A stretch of DNA of 64,000 nt, from assembly GCA_934096705.1 (NCBI GenBank), contig CAKOMR010000004.1:11245-75244 (forward strand), written 5' to 3'. A program made the position numbers and the translations under genes. This document shows, in pieces, positions 9,686 to 64,000 of the stretch. The notes beneath the pieces are model-generated. The model was not told where the DNA came from, searched no databases, and saw only the letters and a program-made list of their open reading frames with translations. This stretch comes from an uncultured Bacilli bacterium. Lineage in GTDB: Bacteria; Bacillota_I; Bacilli_A; RF39; UBA660. Position 1 is the stretch's first letter. Every line of letters starts with the position of its first letter.

Positions 9686-11860
9686 TTATTCTACTACAAA
9701 TGGTTTTGTATATGACCCATCTCCTACAGTATAGCCAGTTCCAGGTTTCAAGGAAATGGCCGGAAGCACGCCATATTTACTACCGATGCTGGATCTAGAC
9801 TGGGAACCATAGTTGGCTACGACACTACCATAAGCGAGTGAGGCATCGAAACTGTTAGGAGAAGCAAGCCAGTAATTGTTACCGGTATTCAAATAGAAAG
9901 TACTCGAACTGGCACCTCTATATGCTAGCCCTACCTCAGGAGCAGATAATAACCCAACTGGGTAAGTAAGTTTCGCTTTACTATTACTCATGCTAAATCT
10001 ATCTGTCTCATTTGTACATGCTAAACTATAATTGGTATTAAAATTTTCAAAATTTATATAGGTTTCTGTACTTCCCCCGTTTGGATTCCAGCCATTTACT
10101 GATTGATTGCTTATAGTTCTGTCATTACAAAATACGGTATCTTCGAGTTTATCTGTATAACTTGTCATTTTTTCTTTATACCATGAGTCTATATATGTTT
10201 TTATTGTACTATCAGTTTTATTTACATCATCTGCATATAACATTTCATTTAAGGCATCATCCACTGATTTACCACCTGTAAGTGTTATATAATATGCACT
10301 ACCCGAACTTGTAGAATGTACATAATAAAGTGATGTACATGTTGTTCCTGTCGTAAAACATGTATAATGATTACTATTAATTGTGTTATATCCACTTGAC
10401 CATGTTGCTACTGTTTTTGTATCACTTAATGTATATGTTCCATTTGCATACGTAAATGTATTTCCGAATACTATATTTGATTGTGACGACATACTTTTTC
10501 TAGAAAATGTATAAACGGTATTATACATATATCCTACATATGCTGGTGAGACGGAACTACTATTAAACGCTGATGTATTTGTAAGTTGTGAAGCATCATT
10601 AGTATTATCACAAGTTTTGAATGTATTATTTTCATCAATTTTATTAAGATTAAATGTTATAGTACTACCCATCCTATTATTGTATGTAATTTTTATTGTA
10701 TTAGAAGATGTTATAGTACCCAAATTCAACTTACTATCTGCATTACCACTAAATCTGCCTTTATCCGTTCCATCGATAAAAATATTAAAATACGAAGGTG
10801 CTTGGCCTTTACTAGTAATGGAATAATTTAGAATATAAACACCAGTTTCTGAAACATTGAATGAAATAGTAGCTGTAGCAGTGGCATTACTATTCGACCA
10901 AATATTATTTGTACTATCAAATGTAAATGGATTACTTGTATCATTGTTTATATTTGTATATTCACCACTAACTAATGGCGTGTTTTCTAATTCCGGCACA
11001 CCATTATATATCATTTTAATCCCACCAGTGTCAGTAGTTCTTACTATCTTCCAGCAAAATCCTCCGAAAAGTACATTGTTATTTTTAACTGCTCCATTAA
11101 AGTAATATATATTATTAGGATAAGTATTTGGATCACCCTCAGCAGTTGGATCATATAGTTTTACATATGTATCACTATTTTTATACCTATTTTCAATTGT
11201 TTCATATAAAGTATTTACTTTATCACCAAAATCAGTTGATACTCCAGTTCCAATTATAATTGTACTTAAAAGTTTTTTATCCATTGTTGAACCATTTCCA
11301 AGCCATCCTTCATTTTCATCAATCCACACATATAAATAATAACTTTTTGAAGAACTTGCTGGAACGCTTACTTCTCCAAGAAAGTATCCTGAAGTAACCC
11401 CACTATAACTTGTATTTTTACTACTTAATTCTTTTTGAGTTACAGAAGATAAATTAATTTGACTAGAAATATTGGTGCCAGAACTTGGTACTGCTGCGCT
11501 TTGTTCTATTAAAGCATACTTAAGTGCTCTAACTGGCATTGTTGATGATTTTTGTGGGACTAGTATAATAGATATGCTTTGTGCTTTAGTACAATTGTTT
11601 TTAACTACAAAAGGTGTTCTAAAAGTCGTTGCGCTTAAAGCTTTAGCATCAGATACAGGTACAGAGTTAGGAGGTTGAATAGTTATTGAACTACTACTTG
11701 AAAATGAAATGGCTGCACATGATGGAGCGTTAACCATAACCTGTGAGTTCGCATTATTTTGGCTATTAGAAACTTTAAAATAAGCGTAAGAAATAGATAC
11801 AAATGTACAAAGAATTAAAAGAATAACAATTACACGTAAATATTTATTACTATTTTTCAT
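9686..11860 (-). CDS. PF-B: large secreted protein with a SipW-type signal peptide and the shared C-terminal WRIxR...YWLASP...RPAISL module
   Basis: N-terminus MKNSNKYLRVIVILLILCTFVSISYAYFKVS. Core YYFNGAVKNNNVLFGGFCWKIVRTTDTGGIKMIYNG. C-terminus LTYPVGLLSAPEV...YWLASP...LPAISLKPGT..GDGSYTKPFVVE. It is 14 nt downstream of PF-C, so the two are probably co-transcribed. Confidence 0.75.
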   Translation of the reverse strand: MKNSNKYLRVIVILLILCTFVSISYAYFKVSNSQNNANSQVMVNAPSCAAISFSSSSSITIQPPNSVPVSDAKALSATTFRTPFVVKNNCTKAQSISIILVPQKSSTMPVRALKYALIEQSAAVPSSGTNISSQINLSSVTQKELSSKNTSYSGVTSGYFLGEVSVPASSSKSYYLYVWIDENEGWLGNGSTMDKKLLSTIIIGTGVSTDFGDKVNTLYETIENRYKNSDTYVKLYDPTAEGDPNTYPNNIYYFNGAVKNNNVLFGGFCWKIVRTTDTGGIKMIYNGVPELENTPLVSGEYTNINNDTSNPFTFDSTNNIWSNSNATATATISFNVSETGVYILNYSITSKGQAPSYFNIFIDGTDKGRFSGNADSKLNLGTITSSNTIKITYNNRMGSTITFNLNKIDENNTFKTCDNTNDASQLTNTSAFNSSSVSPAYVGYMYNTVYTFSRKSMSSQSNIVFGNTFTYANGTYTLSDTKTVATWSSGYNTINSNHYTCFTTGTTCTSLYYVHSTSSGSAYYITLTGGKSVDDALNEMLYADDVNKTDSTIKTYIDSWYKEKMTSYTDKLEDTVFCNDRTISNQSVNGWNPNGGSTETYINFENFNTNYSLACTNETDRFSMSNSKAKLTYPVGLLSAPEVGLAYRGASSSTFYLNTGNNYWLASPNSFDASLAYGSVVANYGSQSRSSIGSKYGVLPAISLKPGTGYTVGDGSYTKPFVVE

Positions 11861-11874
11861 AATCTATTCCTTTC

Positions 11875-13494
11875 TTAATTAACTGTATATGGATCATTAT
11901 AGGTACCTGTACCAGACAACGATACATTTTTTGCAAGTGATATAACTGGTCTTACGCCATATGGCATAAAAACTGATTTATAATCAATTCCACCATTAGA
12001 ATTTGTAAAGACGAGCATACTTCCTGAAAGATAATTGCATGGTGACACTGTCCAATATATATCTAAAGAATATAAAAAGTAATTTAAGTTATTACCTGTA
12101 CCTGATCCAGCAAAGGCCATTTCATCAACAGTAATTAATCCTATAGGATAAGTAAGTGCCCCATTTCCAATATCAGTGTTAACAGTAAACCTGTCACTAG
12201 CACTTTCACACATAAATGTCGGATTGAAAATACCATTAAGAACAAACCTATTGTAACCACCATAATTTGCGGCATAGGAACTATATGTACCTGATCTATC
12301 ATTGCACACAATTTGGTCCGCTATTTTGCCATTTTCATATAATGTTTTTAAATTTGTACTTCCAGAAAACCAATTTTCAAGTAAAATTTTCATTTTGCTA
12401 TTATACACCGTTCCATTAGAAGTAGAACAAGTTGTCTGTGAAGGATCACATTTTCCATAACCATGTTGAGAACCGTCAATATACTGATATCCAATATTTT
12501 CAGGTTTTGAATTGTCACTTACATAAGTTGGTGATGATATTATTTGATTCCTATATTTTCCTACATATTCCTCATTCTCTGTAGGCACAGATGTTCCAGC
12601 ATATAACATTCTTATACTACCATCACCATTTATTCTTATAATTCGCCAGTACATGTCATTATTACTACTATTTTTTCCAAACTTTACCCAATTATTATTA
12701 ATAGCACCTCTAAAAAAATATGTTTTACCTAAATCATCGTTAAGACTATACATACCCTCATTATCAGTTGCGGCAGCAGATACATCAAAAAGGCTTTTGG
12801 AAGAAACATAACTTTCTCCACCATTTAAAGCAAGTATGTAGTCTTTTGCACTAAGTGCTGACATATCTCCATAATCGCAATTTATATTTTCAATTTTGAT
12901 ATTTCCTTTATATGTTTTTCCAATAATACTATCTTGTGGTTTTTCAATATTATAATATTTTAAAGTAAAATTCCATGTATCAGAAATTGTTGTTTTAGAT
13001 GAAGTTGTTTTAATAAGTCTTGCTCCACCTATAACAATTTTGCTCGAACCATTTAAACTAGTTTCAGATATTTTTCCACCATTTTTAGAACTACCACTTA
13101 TAGTAAGCTCATTATATGTAGTTTGTGATGCCATATAAGCAGTTGAAGGTACATAAACAATATCATAAGTACAATACACTGGAGTAGTACTTTTAGCATC
13201 AAGCGTAACTGTGATATTTCCACCACTATTTGATACAAAAGATGTATAATTGTTTGTGGCGTTTTCAACATCTAAATCTGTTTCATTGATTGTTAAAGAT
13301 ATGCTATTTGCTCCCGTAGAATTAAATGTATAAAAAGTAGTATTTATCTGTGTTATTGCATTTTCTGTGTTATTTATAACAAGTTTTCCAAAATAGGCAT
13401 AAGCAATTCCAGAAATTATTGATAAAACTAAAAGCGTACCAATAACAGTAAGGATTTTAGCTCTATTATTTATTATCTTCTCTTTTATATCCAT
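11875..13494 (-). CDS. PF-C: secreted protein with a SipW-type signal peptide and the shared C-terminal module
   Basis: N-terminus ...ILTVIGTLLVLSIISGIAYAYFGKL. Core TYFFRGAINNNWVKF...YWRIIRINGDGSIRMLYAGT. C-terminus LTYPIGLITVDEMAFAG...YWTVSP...GVRPVISL..GTGTYNDPYTVN. Confidence 0.75.
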   Translation of the reverse strand: MDIKEKIINNRAKILTVIGTLLVLSIISGIAYAYFGKLVINNTENAITQINTTFYTFNSTGANSISLTINETDLDVENATNNYTSFVSNSGGNITVTLDAKSTTPVYCTYDIVYVPSTAYMASQTTYNELTISGSSKNGGKISETSLNGSSKIVIGGARLIKTTSSKTTISDTWNFTLKYYNIEKPQDSIIGKTYKGNIKIENINCDYGDMSALSAKDYILALNGGESYVSSKSLFDVSAAATDNEGMYSLNDDLGKTYFFRGAINNNWVKFGKNSSNNDMYWRIIRINGDGSIRMLYAGTSVPTENEEYVGKYRNQIISSPTYVSDNSKPENIGYQYIDGSQHGYGKCDPSQTTCSTSNGTVYNSKMKILLENWFSGSTNLKTLYENGKIADQIVCNDRSGTYSSYAANYGGYNRFVLNGIFNPTFMCESASDRFTVNTDIGNGALTYPIGLITVDEMAFAGSGTGNNLNYFLYSLDIYWTVSPCNYLSGSMLVFTNSNGGIDYKSVFMPYGVRPVISLAKNVSLSGTGTYNDPYTVN

Positions 13495-20542: not shown

Positions 20543-21496
20543 TTAAGGTTGTACGTCTAGTACTTGAGTATATTCAATATTAGCAACAAATTTCTTTTGA
20601 CCATTTTGAATTTGGTTGTGCATTAAATTTCTAAGTGTTACTCTAGCCATATAATATTCATTAATTTTGCCAATTGCTTTAGATGTAGTTATAGATGTTT
20701 CATCTAATAAAACTTTTGATGACTCATTCGGTTCAGTAGTAATATCAAATGAATCTTGAAGAACATAACATCTACTTGTACTATCATCATAATAATCAGT
20801 TACCCAACTACTACCATCTAAATCATCACAAGTACTTTTTGTTGTTGCTGAAGAAACAAGTTTTCTACTAGAGTCATAACATTTTCCAGTATTACAATTG
20901 TCTTTTGTAACAGAAGTATCAGCTTTATAAAAATCTAATACAAGTTCAGCAACTTTTTCTGTAGTCCAAATATAAGTATTACTTGCAGTACAAGAGTATA
21001 AATCAGTATTTGAATTTGGTGTTCCTTTTGGATAACATGCGTAATTAATTCCATCAGTTGTTGCCCAAATATTTCCTTCACCACATTCACTTTCACCAAG
21101 TTCATTTGGAGTAGTTTTTGAATAACATACACCAGATGTATATTCCATATTGTTTTCAGAAACATTTAAAGCAATTTTATACTTTCTTGTAACTTCACTT
21201 TCTGATGATGTTTGATATGTAATACTTCCTTTTGTTTCTGATGAAAGATCTTCTTTATTTTGAGCTTGTTCTTGTCCAAAATTTTCTTCAGTAGCTAAAA
21301 TATCAATTTCACTACCAGCGTCAATTAAAAATAAATCACTTGACACATTTGTTGTAACGTTAATATTACTTTGACCCTTTCCATCAATACGGCTTGCTAA
21401 ATATGCAAATGTTGCTCCTACTACGACAACAAGCATAGTAACAATTGCGATTACTGTAAGAAGAACTACATTATTTTTATTTGATTCCTCGTTCAT
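20543..21496 (-). CDS. PF-E: Cys-rich secreted protein with a SipW-type signal peptide (short family member)
   Basis: N-terminus MNEESNKNNVVLLTVIAIVTMLVVVVGATFAYLASR. Ten Cys in the mature part. It lacks the shared C-terminal module. Confidence 0.65.
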   Translation of the reverse strand: MNEESNKNNVVLLTVIAIVTMLVVVVGATFAYLASRIDGKGQSNINVTTNVSSDLFLIDAGSEIDILATEENFGQEQAQNKEDLSSETKGSITYQTSSESEVTRKYKIALNVSENNMEYTSGVCYSKTTPNELGESECGEGNIWATTDGINYACYPKGTPNSNTDLYSCTASNTYIWTTEKVAELVLDFYKADTSVTKDNCNTGKCYDSSRKLVSSATTKSTCDDLDGSSWVTDYYDDSTSRCYVLQDSFDITTEPNESSKVLLDETSITTSKAIGKINEYYMARVTLRNLMHNQIQNGQKKFVANIEYTQVLDVQP

Positions 21497-29049: not shown

Positions 29050-31161
29050 TTATTCTACTACGAATGGATTTGTATATGAACCATCTCCTGAGGCATACAC
29101 AGTGCCAGGTTTCAAGGAAACAGCCGGACGCACGCCCCCCGCATTGTTGACGTCGCCGCTGTACATGCTACCCGCGGTGCTCACGCGCCTGCCGTTGACG
29201 TTGTAGGCGGAGAATCTGTCAGGGGAAGCAAGCCAGTACCAACTGCCGGTATTTAAATAGTATGTCCTCGAACTGGCATTTCTATACGCTAGCCATACCT
29301 CCGGTGCGGATAATAACCCGACTGGGTATGTAAGTTTGGCTTTACTATTACTCACACTAAATTTATCTGTTTCATTTGTACACGCTAAGCTATAATTGGT
29401 ATTATAATTTTTAAAATATAAATAGTTCGACACACTTACTCCATTTGGATTCCAGCCATTTGCTAATTGGTTGATTATAGTTCTATCATTACAAAATACT
29501 GTATCTTCAAGTTTATCTGTATAACTTGTCATTTTGTCTTTATACCATGAATCTATATATGTTTTCATTGTACTATCAGTTTTATTTACATCATCTGCGT
29601 ATAGCATTTCATTTAATGCATCATCTACTGATTTTCCATTTGTTATGGTTATATAATACGGTGTGATACCATCTATATAATATATATAATAAATTGATGT
29701 GCATGTCGTTCCATCGGTAAAACATGTATAATGATGTGTATTTATACTAGTCTTGTTTGAACTAATGTTACCTGCCCATGTATCTGAACTAATTGTTACT
29801 GTATCACTTAATGTATATGTTCCATTTGCATATGTAAATGAATTACCAAATACATAATCTTTGCTAAAACTCGTTCCATCGGTATTTCCACCCGATAATC
29901 TATAATAATAAATTTTTGTCCCACTGTAACCTACTATATAATATGGGCTTGAACATGACGTAGCTGAACTACTATTACATGTATATTTGCCTACCACGTC
30001 ACTTATATTCGAACTTGATACGCTTACTGTCGATTTATTATTAAGTGTATATGTTGAGCCACTATATGTTACTGAATCTCCTACTATCTTTGAGCCACTA
30101 AAACTTATCGAACTTATTAATGATTTTGATGAGTATGTATAAACTGTATTATACATATAGCCTACATATGCTGGTGAATTATATGTGCTATTAAATGCTT
30201 TTGTACTTGCCAGTTGTGAAGCTGTACCACTATTATTACATGAACCATCAGTCTGTACTCCATTATACACCATTTTAACTCCACCAGTGTCTGTTGTTCT
30301 TACTATCTTCCAGCAGAATCCTCCGAAAAGGACATTGTTATTTTCTACCGCTCCATTAAAATAATATACTGGATGTGAATATGAACTTGCATCAGACTCA
30401 CTATATAGTTTTACATATGTATCATTATTTTTATATCTTTGTTCTATTTTACTATAAAGACTTTCTTTTGAATAACTTTCATTATTACATTTAACACTAC
30501 TTTCATCCACATAAAATGTTCCAGAAAATGTTTTACCTGCTAAAGCTGATTGATTTACATCTAAATTATAAAACTTTGTACTTATTCCATATGTTTGTGT
30601 TGTTCCTCTTGTTGAAGCATCAGATATTGTAGCTCCACTTATAATAACTCTTTTAGGTTTTGAGGAATTACTCCATTTTCCTGAAGTAGTTTCATAATTA
30701 AAGTTTTTTTCTTCGACAAAATCACCTTTTGCATCAATACCAAGTACTTGTAAAGTAAGCTCTTTATCGGCTCCTGTAGTTACCGGTGTTGGGCTTATTC
30801 CATAAAAACTTGAGGATGAATCATATTCAAATACGATATCATAAGTACATGTAGTACGAATTTTATCTGAACCTGACGTAAGAGTTACATTTAAATAACT
30901 TCCCTCTCTTGCGGCCACTCCACTTTCTACATACTGAGTCATATTTTTACTTGGAACTGTTAAATTAAAATCTGCTCCATCAGAAACAAATGTGCCTTCA
31001 GCTCCTACATCAATTGTTACATTTACTTTTACCTTACTAGTTACATTTTGATTAAATGAACCAAAATATGCGAATGATGCCCCTATAAATAAAGATAAAA
31101 GAAGTACACTTGCAACTAGGGAAAAAATCTTTGTATTTCTACTTATATTCTTACTATCCAT
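29050..31161 (-). CDS. PF-A: large secreted protein with a SipW-type signal peptide, the shared C-terminal module and a GC-rich hypervariable cassette
   Basis: N-terminus ...IFSLVASVLLLSLFIGASFAYFGSF. Core YYFNGAVENNNVLFGGFCWKIVRTTDTGGVKMVYNG. C-terminus LTYPVGLLSAPEV..YWLASP-[34 aa]-SLKPGT..GDGSYTNPFVVE. Confidence 0.75.
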   Translation of the reverse strand: MDSKNISRNTKIFSLVASVLLLSLFIGASFAYFGSFNQNVTSKVKVNVTIDVGAEGTFVSDGADFNLTVPSKNMTQYVESGVAAREGSYLNVTLTSGSDKIRTTCTYDIVFEYDSSSSFYGISPTPVTTGADKELTLQVLGIDAKGDFVEEKNFNYETTSGKWSNSSKPKRVIISGATISDASTRGTTQTYGISTKFYNLDVNQSALAGKTFSGTFYVDESSVKCNNESYSKESLYSKIEQRYKNNDTYVKLYSESDASSYSHPVYYFNGAVENNNVLFGGFCWKIVRTTDTGGVKMVYNGVQTDGSCNNSGTASQLASTKAFNSTYNSPAYVGYMYNTVYTYSSKSLISSISFSGSKIVGDSVTYSGSTYTLNNKSTVSVSSSNISDVVGKYTCNSSSATSCSSPYYIVGYSGTKIYYYRLSGGNTDGTSFSKDYVFGNSFTYANGTYTLSDTVTISSDTWAGNISSNKTSINTHHYTCFTDGTTCTSIYYIYYIDGITPYYITITNGKSVDDALNEMLYADDVNKTDSTMKTYIDSWYKDKMTSYTDKLEDTVFCNDRTIINQLANGWNPNGVSVSNYLYFKNYNTNYSLACTNETDKFSVSNSKAKLTYPVGLLSAPEVWLAYRNASSRTYYLNTGSWYWLASPDRFSAYNVNGRRVSTAGSMYSGDVNNAGGVRPAVSLKPGTVYASGDGSYTNPFVVE

Positions 31162-43085: not shown

Positions 43086-44057
43086 CTACTTTTCTCCTTC
43101 TTCAAGCATTTTTCTAATATATAGTCCATAACCTGTGTAAGGATTATCCACAATAACATGGGTTAAAACTCCTACAATATTACCATTTTGCAATATTGGA
43201 GACCCACTCATTCCTTGAACTACTCCACCAGTAAGTTCTAAAAGTCTATCATCATTTATTTTAAAAGAAATGTTTTTTACTTCACTATTATCGTTTACTG
43301 ATGTTATTTCAATATTAAATGTTTCAATATTTTCATCACTTAAAACAGTTTTAATTTCTGCACTACCAACTTTAGCTTCACCTATATTTGCTAAAGAAAA
43401 ATTTTCCAAAGTATCATTATAATAACCGAATATTCCATATTTAGTATTTTTAAAAATGCTTCCATAGTTTTGATTATAATCAAATTTTGCCATTTTACTT
43501 CCTGGAACTCCTATTTTACTTTTTTCTATTCCAGTGATTTTATTATTAAAAATTTGACCACTTTTAATTTCAACAATTGAGTTTGAAGTACTTTCAATAA
43601 TTTCATGACCTAAAGCACCAAAAATTTTAGTTTCTGGATCGATATAAGAAAGAGTTCCAATACCCATAATTGAACTTTTTACAAAAAGACCAGTTTTAAT
43701 AACACCATCAATATTAATAAGTTTTAATGATGTATTTTTTTCTATTCCATTCCTTATATATGTGATATTTACGCTATCATTTTTAGAATTTTTTTCAATT
43801 GCTTTGGTAAGTTCATCAACACTATTTACCATAGTATCCTCAACTTTAACTATATAATCACCATTTTGCATATTTGGACTTCCTTTATTAAATTTACCAT
43901 TTACTTTATAAAAACCAATTACCATAACTCCTTTAGAATCCACTTTTATCCCTAACGTTTTGCCTCCTATAATAATTTTCTCAGAATAAGCAAATACGCA
44001 TGAAGGAATAATTAGTAAAGAAATTATTAAAAAAATTATTTTTTTCATATTTACCAC
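43086..44057 (-). CDS. spoIVB: SpoIVB signalling serine peptidase (S55) with a PDZ domain
   Basis: Signal anchor, PDZ region (GDYIVKVEDTMVNSVDEL), and catalytic GMSGSPI. Confidence 0.8.
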   Translation of the reverse strand: MVNMKKIIFLIISLLIIPSCVFAYSEKIIIGGKTLGIKVDSKGVMVIGFYKVNGKFNKGSPNMQNGDYIVKVEDTMVNSVDELTKAIEKNSKNDSVNITYIRNGIEKNTSLKLINIDGVIKTGLFVKSSIMGIGTLSYIDPETKIFGALGHEIIESTSNSIVEIKSGQIFNNKITGIEKSKIGVPGSKMAKFDYNQNYGSIFKNTKYGIFGYYNDTLENFSLANIGEAKVGSAEIKTVLSDENIETFNIEITSVNDNSEVKNISFKINDDRLLELTGGVVQGMSGSPILQNGNIVGVLTHVIVDNPYTGYGLYIRKMLEEGEK

Positions 44058-50002: not shown

Positions 50003-51340
50003 TTAATTAGTTACATAATTAGTTACAACGTATGGATCATTCCAAGTACCAGAACCACTAAACATAACATCGCTATTTAAACTTATTACAGGCCTTACAG
50101 ATAATTCTTGTAACATACTTACACTTGCTATAGCACCTTGCTCATCAATAGTATATACTGAAGCAGAACCATCCATAACACTATACAACATTCCCGTTCC
50201 TAAATAAGTTGCTGTTCCCGTATATAAATAGTAGTCTAAATTGTCTACTCCATAAACACCGCCAGCCATCATTACTTCGTCTAAAGTTAATAATCCAACA
50301 GAATATGTCAAAGCTTGATTACAATCACCTACAACATCAGAAACGCTACAAAACTTATAAGTGTAATTACCATCATCAGAGCATTTATTTATAGGTGAAA
50401 AATTTTCTGCTCTTTTATAACCTGATAAGTATGGATCAGATCTTAAATTAGTGCCTTCATAATAAAAATCAGCACAAAAAATTTGAGGATAAATAACACC
50501 ATCGTTTTCATAGTCTACAAGGTTATCTTCAAACCACTCTTCTAATGCTATTTTCATTTGACTATTAGTTACGTCACAATTAATTTCACTTGGCGGACAA
50601 TAGCCAAATGCAGGTGATCCATTATCAGTCTGATATCCATACTGGTTAGAAGTATGCATAAATAATGAAGCAATAGCAAAAGCATCACCTGAATTCATAT
50701 AAACTCTTTCATTTTCCTCGGGTGCTCTTGTTCCACTATAAAGAAGCCTAATAGTATCATCACCATTTATTCTTACTATTCGCCAGTAAAAGTTTGCAAA
50801 TTTTACCCAATTGTTATCGACTGCTCCTCTAAAATAATATGATGTACCCCTATCGTCATCCGTGATGTATAAGCCTTCATTATCAGAGGCTGTTTCTGAA
50901 AAATTCGGTTCTCCTTTAGCAATGATATTTGCTTTTGCTAAATCAACAGTAGTAGCTCCCTCACCATTTGCAAGAAGAATTCTTTCATATGCTAAAGATG
51001 GTGCTGCAACAGCGATATAATCAAAATATAAAAAGCACTTATCAGTACCTATAAAATTAAAACTAATTGTTCCTGTGGAACTATTATAATCCGTAACTGT
51101 TCCATTATTTTTACAATACGTTTTTTCAGTATTTAAAGAATAACTACCTTTAGGTATATCTTTAGAACTATATTTAGTATAGTCAGTAGCGCCTTCTTCT
51201 TTTACCATAATTGCTATAGAGTCTTCCTTATTTTGCAATGTTTTTTCTTGAAGTTTACTTTCCTTTGGTGTTTTAAGACTAAATAAAACTATCAAGCAAA
51301 ATACTATTCCACTTATTAATAAAAGTAATCTTTTCTTCAT
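50003..51340 (-). CDS. PF-D: family member with a plain signal anchor and the shared C-terminal module
   Basis: SYYFRGAVDNNWVKFANFYWRIVRINGDDTIRLLYSGT; LTYSVGLLTLDEVMMAG; SVRPVISL; GSGTWNDPYVV. I prefer the start at 51340 (GGAGA 8 nt upstream). Confidence 0.75.
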   Translation of the reverse strand: MKKRLLLLISGIVFCLIVLFSLKTPKESKLQEKTLQNKEDSIAIMVKEEGATDYTKYSSKDIPKGSYSLNTEKTYCKNNGTVTDYNSSTGTISFNFIGTDKCFLYFDYIAVAAPSLAYERILLANGEGATTVDLAKANIIAKGEPNFSETASDNEGLYITDDDRGTSYYFRGAVDNNWVKFANFYWRIVRINGDDTIRLLYSGTRAPEENERVYMNSGDAFAIASLFMHTSNQYGYQTDNGSPAFGYCPPSEINCDVTNSQMKIALEEWFEDNLVDYENDGVIYPQIFCADFYYEGTNLRSDPYLSGYKRAENFSPINKCSDDGNYTYKFCSVSDVVGDCNQALTYSVGLLTLDEVMMAGGVYGVDNLDYYLYTGTATYLGTGMLYSVMDGSASVYTIDEQGAIASVSMLQELSVRPVISLNSDVMFSGSGTWNDPYVVTNYVTN

Positions 51341-51450
51341 AATCATTATCTCCTATAAAGGTAAGTTTTATAACCTCTTATTATTACATAACAATTTTAG
51401 CATATTTTATTTAAAATTTATATAATATTTTTTGAAAAAATAAAAAAACG

Positions 51451-63890: not shown

Positions 63891-64000
63891 TTATTTTAAT
63901 AAAAGTACTACAGAATTACCTTCTTTTACATAAGTCCCACCCGAAGGAGTTTGATAGGACACGTTTGTGCCTGATCCAGAAAATTCAAGTTTAAATCCCT
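63891..64000 (-). CDS. C-terminal fragment of a penicillin-binding protein (PASTA-like end; SpoVD/PBP2B position)
   Basis: Manual translation ...GFKLEFSGSGTNVSYQTPSGGTYVKEGNSVVLLLK*. Lies upstream of mraY, as in the dcw cluster. The N-terminus is outside the window. Confidence 0.4.
   Translation of the reverse strand, partial: GFKLEFSGSGTNVSYQTPSGGTYVKEGNSVVLLLK

Follow-up and report, generated by a model that had tools for sequence, protein, structure and literature searches.

Results

The stretch of DNA considered here (the window, 64 kb of contig CAKOMR010000004.1 in GenBank assembly GCA_934096705.1, from an uncultured RF39 bacterium of the Bacilli) carries on its minus strand a gene for a secreted or surface protein of 703 aa, and near the 3' end of that gene lies a short G+C-rich cassette that had been flagged from the sequence alone. 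We interpret this cassette as the variable region (VR) of a diversity-generating retroelement (DGR) target that was rewritten in the past, is now frozen, and is either remote from its retroelement or orphaned, a reading to which we attach a probability of roughly 85%. The features on which the text relies, numbered from the first nucleotide of the window, are as follows.

29050..31161, minus strand: target gene, an open reading frame (ORF) for a secreted or surface protein of 703 aa, one of a multi-paralog family of AT-rich gut Bacilli with about 2000 homologs
31054..31161, minus strand: N-terminal hydrophobic signal or anchor helix ending ...GASFAYFGSF (helix 8-32 in the model; the motif is common to the paralogs)
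29110..29277, minus strand: C-terminal part matching DUF6273 (Pfam profile positions 117-171 of 172; aa 629-684)
29116..29235, minus strand: putative full VR, the stretch homologous to a template repeat (TR), as delimited by a gap-free 120-nt alignment with the TR of a relative (locus L047)
29119..29220, minus strand: flagged cassette, 34 codons for residues 648-681, 64.7% G+C
29123..29136, minus strand: GGCGTGCGTCCGGC, a 14-mer rich in G/C and free of adenine, at the 3' end of the VR; the same in the TR and the VR of L047
9747..9871, minus strand: equivalent cassette of the paralog 9686..11860, about 48-51% G+C, with VLP in place of VRP, not TR-like

By direct recount the cassette holds 66 G+C in 102 nt (64.7%), with G or C at the third base in 28 of its 34 codons and C in 20 of the 34 (GAC AGA TTC ... 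GCT GTT), reproducing the counts of the original prediction; the G/C-rich 3' end that the prediction had also remarked upon is present as gcggggggcgtgcgtccggc. The encoded peptide, DRFSAYNVNGRRVSTAGSMYSGDVNNAGGVRPAV, is bounded within the ORF by the motifs YWLASP and SLKPGT. Among all 102-nt segments of the 64 kb the cassette has the highest G+C content, approximately 6 sd over the mean (26.6%, sd 6.3%) and well outside the range of chance, and the only other place to reach at least 50% G+C, 9716-9861, is the same position in the paralog 9686..11860. The full VR runs from TGG CTT GCT TCC CCT (the adenine-free codons of WLASP) to GTT TCC and is ended by the adenine-free, G/C-rich element GGCGTGCGTCCGGC, which by analogy with the initiation of mutagenic homing (IMH) site of Bordetella phage BPP-1 is a candidate for the core of an IMH-like homing site.

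The VR falls at the C-terminal end of a DUF6273 domain, where a Pfam match overlaps it at threshold (cutoff 23.5 bits; the whole protein scores 23.1 and the C-terminal domain alone 23.7); the same profile is matched in 15 of the 23 family members tested. DUF6273 is a C-type-lectin-like domain that has been described as a DGR target with a C-terminal VR (PMC10743442, PMC11792537), and together with this literature the match bears out the predicted placement of the cassette at a VR-type site at the C-terminal end of a lectin-like module. The full-length AlphaFold2 model has a mean predicted local distance difference test (pLDDT) score of 75, with values near 70-75 in the VR region. The second PDB match of this model in Foldseek, 9qa6 (probability 0.99, E=3e-3), is the IgA peptidase of Thomasclavelia ramosa, the N-terminal domain of which is annotated as DUF6273 (PMC12402451), and the marginal matches in BFVD include, at rank 7, a phage 'DUF6273 domain-containing protein'. 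No PDB sequence was matched in a profile search with the C-terminal domain. The structure backs a lectin fold weakly, and the fold call leans mainly on Pfam and the literature. We infer that the C-terminal domain would display the cassette loop as a ligand-binding surface.

Variation among alleles

A syntenic ortholog (L005), with flanks 96% identical and a protein 87% identical to those of the window, allows the cassette to be compared with its own gene. Between the two alleles, 23 of the 25 nucleotide differences in the cassette fall at codon positions 1-2, as against 75 of 207 elsewhere in the gene (Fisher P=6e-8); the rate of difference at third positions is 5.9% in the cassette and 19.7% elsewhere, and the changed codons are nonsynonymous in 15 of 16 cases within the cassette and in 73 of 177 outside it. 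The 40 nt upstream of the cassette (WYWLASP) are unchanged. Given that the non-adenine sites of the VR are less diverged from the ortholog than is the remainder of the gene, rewriting from a shared template after the split of the two lineages is indicated.

A third VR on the same DNA scaffold is found in a paralog, P0023 (L037 11561-11686). When the VRs of the lineage (window, L005, L037) are set against the TR of L047, the sites at which the TR has adenine are variable in 29 instances and invariant in 10, and the remaining sites are variable in 9 and invariant in 72 (odds ratio 23, Fisher P=6e-12). Across nine family VRs of equal length, adenine occurs in 4 of 57 invariant columns. Variation among alleles is concentrated at template adenine positions, in NNC codons at positions 1-2, and the pattern is the one that adenine-directed mutagenesis from an AAC-rich, otherwise A-free template would leave. 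It was this pattern that the original prediction had claimed to see, and both the differences from L005, at codon positions 1-2 with C at the third base, and the adenine-only mismatches between TR and VR within the family (see below) agree with it.

Template repeats and complete retroelements in relatives

A predicted TR was built by placing A at every site that varies among the alleles. Its peptide, searched against a collection of 5.8 billion proteins, retrieved six short, Asn-rich ORFs of 62-82 aa (for example RWLASPNYFNNNNANGRNVNTNDNMNNNNVNNANGVRPAVSLKPG and MLAARWLASPNYFNNNNANGRNVNTNDNMNNNNVNNANGVRPAVSLKPG...), and a profile made from these six found 301 such ORFs. Three loci (L044, L045 and L047) carry an AAC-rich TR 100-220 nt downstream of a family target gene. 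A fourth (L046, in the NCBI metagenome-assembled genome (MAG) GCA_051872415.1, 'Bacilli bacterium', 26.1% G+C) presents in order a 705-aa target, TR, an Avd-like ORF, a reverse transcriptase (RT), dnaG and rpoD, and as dnaG and rpoD follow the RT the DGR cassette there is chromosomal. The RT is 493 aa long, matches RVT_1 at E=8.6e-18 and has the motifs SIGAMTSQ and YMDD; the Avd-like ORF, of 116 aa, matches NF033474 at E=3.6e-4, under the cutoff of that model. In this family the TR sits within a small ORF that duplicates the C-terminal tail of the target.

The mismatches between TR and VR at these loci, counted as adenine/non-adenine positions of the TR, are 19/0 in L047, 17/1 in L046, 28/2 in L045 and 22/7 in L044. 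The window VR aligns without gaps over 120 nt to the L047 TR, with 22 mismatches at TR adenines and 13 elsewhere, the latter mostly at synonymous third positions; in view of these 13, the L047 TR is a homolog of the template of this lineage and not the template itself. Nor is the L046 TR, with its 34 non-adenine mismatches, the one that gave rise to the window VR. At the protein level the window target is 31% identical to that of L045 over 680 aa (E=1e-85, with homology across aa 81-703), matches that of L046 at E=1e-51, and in its C-terminal 100 aa is 53% identical to that of L047.

Some further observations concern these loci. Two independent DGR loci (L044 370-400 and L045 2040-2070) share a conserved hairpin, GTCTCACGAAAACCCTTTCGTGAGAC, between the target stop codon and the TR; this hairpin may serve as a terminator or belong to the DGR RNA. 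Most contigs that bear a TR are shorter than 2.5 kb, and in one sequence (P0195) what is apparently the 5' half of a TR is fused to the 3' half of a VR; it seems that short-read assemblies break or become chimeric at TR/VR repeats, which would hide DGRs in MAGs.

Family and genomic context

The target gene has ddl/murF on one side and a convergent gene for a T2SSE-type ATPase on the other, amid housekeeping genes (mreC, lon, obg, ribosomal proteins, dnaK/dnaJ, ffh, priA), and the scanned ORFs of the window are without exception housekeeping genes or target paralogs. Three paralogs (9686-11860, 11875-13494 and 50003-51346) have the same C-terminal domain, and a fifth ORF (20543-21496) has in common with them the N-terminal signal-like segment with its AYF motif. 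The flanks of the cassette in 9686..11860 are 85% identical in DNA to those of the target and the cassettes themselves are dissimilar; the paralog cassette, at 9747..9871, is probably a decayed former VR that lies outside the active element. It was also considered as a TR and rejected, its mismatches to the VR not being adenine-specific and its identity to the predicted TR being 58%. The cassettes of 11875-13494 and 50003-51346 resemble background, at 32-37% G+C, and since the same fold is coded there at such a composition, amino-acid content does not force the G+C content of the flagged cassette. Taken together, the cassettes of the window (65%, about 50% and 32-37% G+C) have the look of former DGR targets in successive stages of decay.

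The approximately 2000 homologs come from gut metagenomes and keep throughout the flanks ...YWLASP and GVRPxVSLKPG...GDGSYTNPFVVE, between which lie some 30 hypervariable residues rich in N, Y, S, D and G. Those GTDB representatives in which the family occurs are AT-rich MAGs under the labels Bacilli, Anaeroplasmataceae, Tenericutes or Mycoplasma sp. CAG:472, and a single genome can have as many as 6 paralogs. Most paralogs have cassettes of 53-68% G+C in a background of 23-28%, and a few (L011, L021, L034) have cassettes of 31-41%. Leaving aside tRNA genes, terminators and a small number of Pro/Ala-rich coding stretches, the cassettes are the main GC-rich islands of the loci checked. The GC-rich islands of all loci were also considered as TRs and rejected, being tRNA genes, Pro/Ala-rich coding sequence, VR-like cassettes or terminators, and P0160, considered as a TR ORF, proved to be unrelated sequence.

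Several members of the family are of unusual build. In P0010, P0129 and P0131 the N-terminal 230 aa or so are almost identical to those of the window protein and the middle and C-terminus differ, which on sequence grounds indicates mosaic recombination among paralogs; the VR of P0129 has a run NNNN that looks unmutated and, compared with its cluster mates, lacks three codons. P0023 (882 aa, L037 10001-12649) has two tandem lectin-type domains, each with a GC-rich VR-like cassette (11561-11686, 53% G+C; 12455-12583, 49% G+C), and the two cassettes belong to different subfamilies (WLASP...ARPAVSLK and WLLSP...VRPAFYLD); it is identical on 10 contigs, and its organism is apparently the same as, or close to, that of the window. 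P0002 and P0003 (627 aa, on 3.1-kb contigs) are 99%-identical variants of the window protein ending ...SAPEVLACFP, as if some 75 nt between two GGTA repeats upstream of the VR had been lost and the WLASP codons put out of frame; this form may reflect a true deletion allele or an error of assembly. In targets of the '...DNAYRVG' subfamily a G+C-rich inverted-repeat sequence, GTGCGTGGCGGCAGTATCCGCCCCGCACTGCCG, follows directly upon the stop codon (L007 1255-1325 and L031 9400-9467), is identical in two different MAGs, and could be a terminator or a DGR-related element.

The N-terminal segment of the target (31054..31161) we take to be a signal peptide of the SipW/TasA type; an NCBIfam scan gave no match. 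Hydrophobic helices that end in a motif of the (A/S)(Y/F)AYF type stand at the start of the target (GASFAYFGSF) and of the ORFs 9686-11860, 11875-13494 and 20543-21496 (ISYAYFKV, GIAYAYFGK and GATFAYLAS), and a weak Peptidase_S26 gene is located about 9 kb upstream of the family member in L006. Beyond window position 64000 (L042 5140-9990, L043 1074-7359) a penicillin-binding-protein gene is apparently split into a PBP_dimer+Transpeptidase ORF and a Transpeptidase+PASTA ORF by an insert with a Fic-domain gene and a large serine recombinase, to which L043 adds a sigma-70-like gene; the arrangement recalls the intervening elements that are excised during sporulation. Sporulation genes (SpoIVB peptidase, YunB, YutH and SpoVIF) are found in this 26% G+C lineage (window 43086-44057; L037 16246-19760; L040 4899-5141), and by its gene content the organism is probably a spore-former, though NCBI labels its relatives Mycoplasma or Tenericutes.

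Discussion

The comparative evidence supports, as to its origin and kind, the reading that had been proposed for the cassette: the variable region of a DGR target, upon which a retroelement acted from elsewhere. In the sequence of events that we propose, a DGR would have rewritten the VR after the lineage split from its sister of 96% identity. A template-repeat RNA (about 120 nt, AAC-rich, otherwise free of adenine and hence G+C-rich) would have been copied by the DGR RT with Avd, with misincorporation opposite the template adenines, and the resulting cDNA would have taken the place of the region as far as the conserved GGCGTGCGTCCGGC end, leaving NNC codons variable at positions 1-2, with adenine-free codons for the scaffold residues. 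The odds that TR and RT reside elsewhere in the genome (a remote target) or have been lost or sit on a mobile element (an orphan VR) are roughly even. Cellular DGR targets more than 100 kb from their RT have been documented (PMC5758913), and for this reason the DGR may still reside far off in the genome. Episodic rewriting followed by long stasis is the simplest reading of these data.

A number of results nonetheless weigh against this interpretation, among them the failure to find the retroelement. No YxDD or SQ motif occurs in any frame of the window and no RT domain is present, and relaxed blastn searches of the window and all fetched loci (760 kb) with the VR and the predicted TR returned paralog VRs only; the original prediction's statement that neither RT nor TR is visible in the 64 kb is upheld by this six-frame scan and by blastn. 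Neither was found within 10 kb past either end of the window or at the P0023 locus, where only housekeeping genes were met, nor in a six-frame RT motif scan of 28 family loci from 12 GTDB species representatives, a set that does not include the species of the window (best match 76% identity). Nor is the cognate template among the TRs that were found, the nearest (L047) carrying the 13 non-adenine mismatches noted above. The structural support for the fold is likewise slight: AlphaFold2 gave the C-terminal domain alone (23 sequences) an unusable pLDDT of 35, and a Foldseek search of the PDB with the full-length model returned zero matches with E<0.001 and marginal ones only. Last, there is no conspicuous hairpin or cruciform 3' of the VR (folded as DNA, 29060-29150 gives -8.5 kcal/mol, z=0.75 relative to shuffled sequences); targets of the BPP-1 type have such an element just 3' of the VR, a feature that is not universal among DGR targets.

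The stasis of the VR is to be counted on the same side. The exact 703-aa protein occurs on 11 contigs, the four shown being from four different ENA assemblies; ERZ27286990, ERZ28614700 and ERZ4560427 are among the assemblies with this gene. Relative to the window, L002 has 38 substitutions in 22 kb and L003 has 35 in 16 kb (99.8% identity), and neither has any in the gene. In ten family clusters drawn at 90% identity the VR has 0-3 single substitutions and the whole protein at most 20 differences, the VR thus varying no more than the remainder of the protein. Polymorphism concentrated in the VR among strains or within populations, by which active diversification would be recognised, was not observed; the VR is not diversifying at present and is fixed in the sampled population. 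It is also undecayed, with its third-position Cs all intact and a 14-mer 3' core equal to that of working TR/VR pairs. The suggestion of ongoing diversification made in the original prediction is not supported, given the conservation of the cassette as-is in close strains and on the 11 identical contigs. Conservation of this kind had been named beforehand as a sign of an old GC-rich import; the cassette is indeed identical in close strains, and the VR looks as if it had been written in the past and frozen since.

Other searches bear on the distribution of the element. Degenerate TR and boundary patterns run against viral, genome and metagenome contigs found no TR, and as the window's own VR was absent too this search is uninformative for the window genome; the two metagenome-contig matches (L035 and L036) are further VR-bearing genes. 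No phage relative of the target was matched in a DNA search, a protein search or a scan of viral-contig proteins. DGRs are listed for rumen 'Tenericutes' MAGs (Roux et al. 2021, supplement), and a literature search for DGRs in RF39 found nothing.

Of the other explanations, the one that survives best is that of a relic, in which the ancestral DGR is gone and the differences among orthologs and paralogs arose through gene conversion among paralogous cassettes. The family is certainly a mosaic one, P0010 and P0129 keeping the N-terminal 230 aa or so and differing in the middle and C-terminus, and P0129 departs from its cluster mates in the VR and in the downstream tail. A decay series, moreover, can be traced from 65% G+C in the window cassette through about 50% in the paralog at 9747-9871 to 31-41% in L011, L021 and L034, and no RT was found near any of some 30 family loci. 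We nevertheless consider this explanation unlikely: among approximately 175 family proteins and 30 VR DNAs there is no donor cassette for the VR of the window or of L005, the differences are scattered single codons on an identical scaffold, as from mutagenesis, and not blocks, and related AT-rich Bacilli do have intact DGRs with the same target family. Paralog cassettes certainly recombine in the family, in any case, and some of the allele differences could be explained in this way.

It is a good deal less probable that the gene is an actively diversifying remote target, with RT and TR elsewhere in the genome and a VR that is being rewritten now. Such activity would suit a VR without decay, its third-position Cs and 14-mer 3' core intact, and a third-position divergence (5.9% in the VR as against 19.7% in the rest) that suggests rewriting after the split, and remote targets are known (PMC5758913). 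It is difficult to reconcile with a protein identical on 11 contigs from several samples, strains of 99.8% identity included, or with ten family clusters in which the VR has 0-3 single substitutions to at most 20 elsewhere, and RT and TR were not found in approximately 84 kb around the gene. That the GC-rich patch came by horizontal import, or by amino-acid or codon selection, without any retroelement can be dismissed with near certainty, for although the patch is compositionally foreign and lies between flanks 85% identical to the paralog that it does not itself resemble, dozens of family members, spread over many AT-rich genomes, have boundaries that agree to the codon, the sites that vary fall where independently found TRs have adenine, invariant columns contain hardly any adenine, and neighbouring paralogs encode the same fold at 32-37% G+C.

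Returning to a VR rewritten in the past and since frozen, we would venture one extension, a tentative one. DGR use in this lineage may be punctuated and supplied in trans, not a continuous hypermutation, the loops of at least five dispersed lectin-domain surface genes per genome being rewritten in rare bursts. The DGR would then be missing from most genomes, for instance as a transient mobile element or by repeated loss, and most VRs would be frozen 'orphans' that decay slowly to A+T; if this is true, the window holds three stages of that decay, at 65%, about 50% and 32-37% G+C.

Several points of wider import follow. The VR by itself is enough for a DGR footprint to be recognised and verified: the peptide of a template predicted from two alleles retrieved real TRs. 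Stasis of the VR within lineages as opposed to rewriting between them bears on the rate at which cellular gut DGRs fire, and it counsels caution, in that a VR-like cassette need not mean ongoing hypermutation. DGRs in such MAGs are probably under-counted, since TR/VR repeats evidently break short-read assemblies.

Among known systems, the DUF6273 targets of DGRs in Faecalibacterium prophages and the 'tentaclin' phage receptor-binding proteins (PMC11792537, PMC10743442) share with the window gene the Pfam domain, a C-terminal VR, the logic of an AAC-rich TR and an origin in gut Firmicutes. Those, however, are phage proteins that adjoin their RT and TR, whereas here the gene is cellular and chromosomal, neither RT nor TR was found to a distance of approximately 40 kb on each side, and searches for phage relatives found none. 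In TvpA of Treponema denticola and other cellular DGRs, as is supposed here, one template serves several dispersed, secreted, lectin-fold targets at distances that can exceed 100 kb (PMC4891356, PMC5758913). In Treponema, unlike here, RT, TR and an adjacent target are all known from one genome; the window VR, for its part, lacks population-level variation.

The prototype DGR is that of Bordetella phage BPP-1, with Mtd, Brt and Avd. Adenine-specific mutagenesis, a VR at the 3' end of the ORF and a G/C-rich terminal element are common to both systems, and Avd and RT are present together in the related L046; by contrast the window gene is cellular and not phage-borne, its target belongs to another fold family, a hairpin 3' of the VR was not detected, and in its family the TR lies in a small ORF that copies the C-terminal tail of the target. 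The DGR of L046 (GCA_051872415.1) involves the same protein family, a genome of 26% G+C and a VR framed by WLASP...GVRP, with 17 of 18 mismatches at adenines, but it belongs to another organism, its target is only about 31% identical, and the window VR does not derive from its TR. What is new in relation to all of these is a chromosomal, multi-paralog family of lectin-domain surface proteins, in all likelihood written by DGRs, in an uncultured, small-genome lineage of gut Bacilli.

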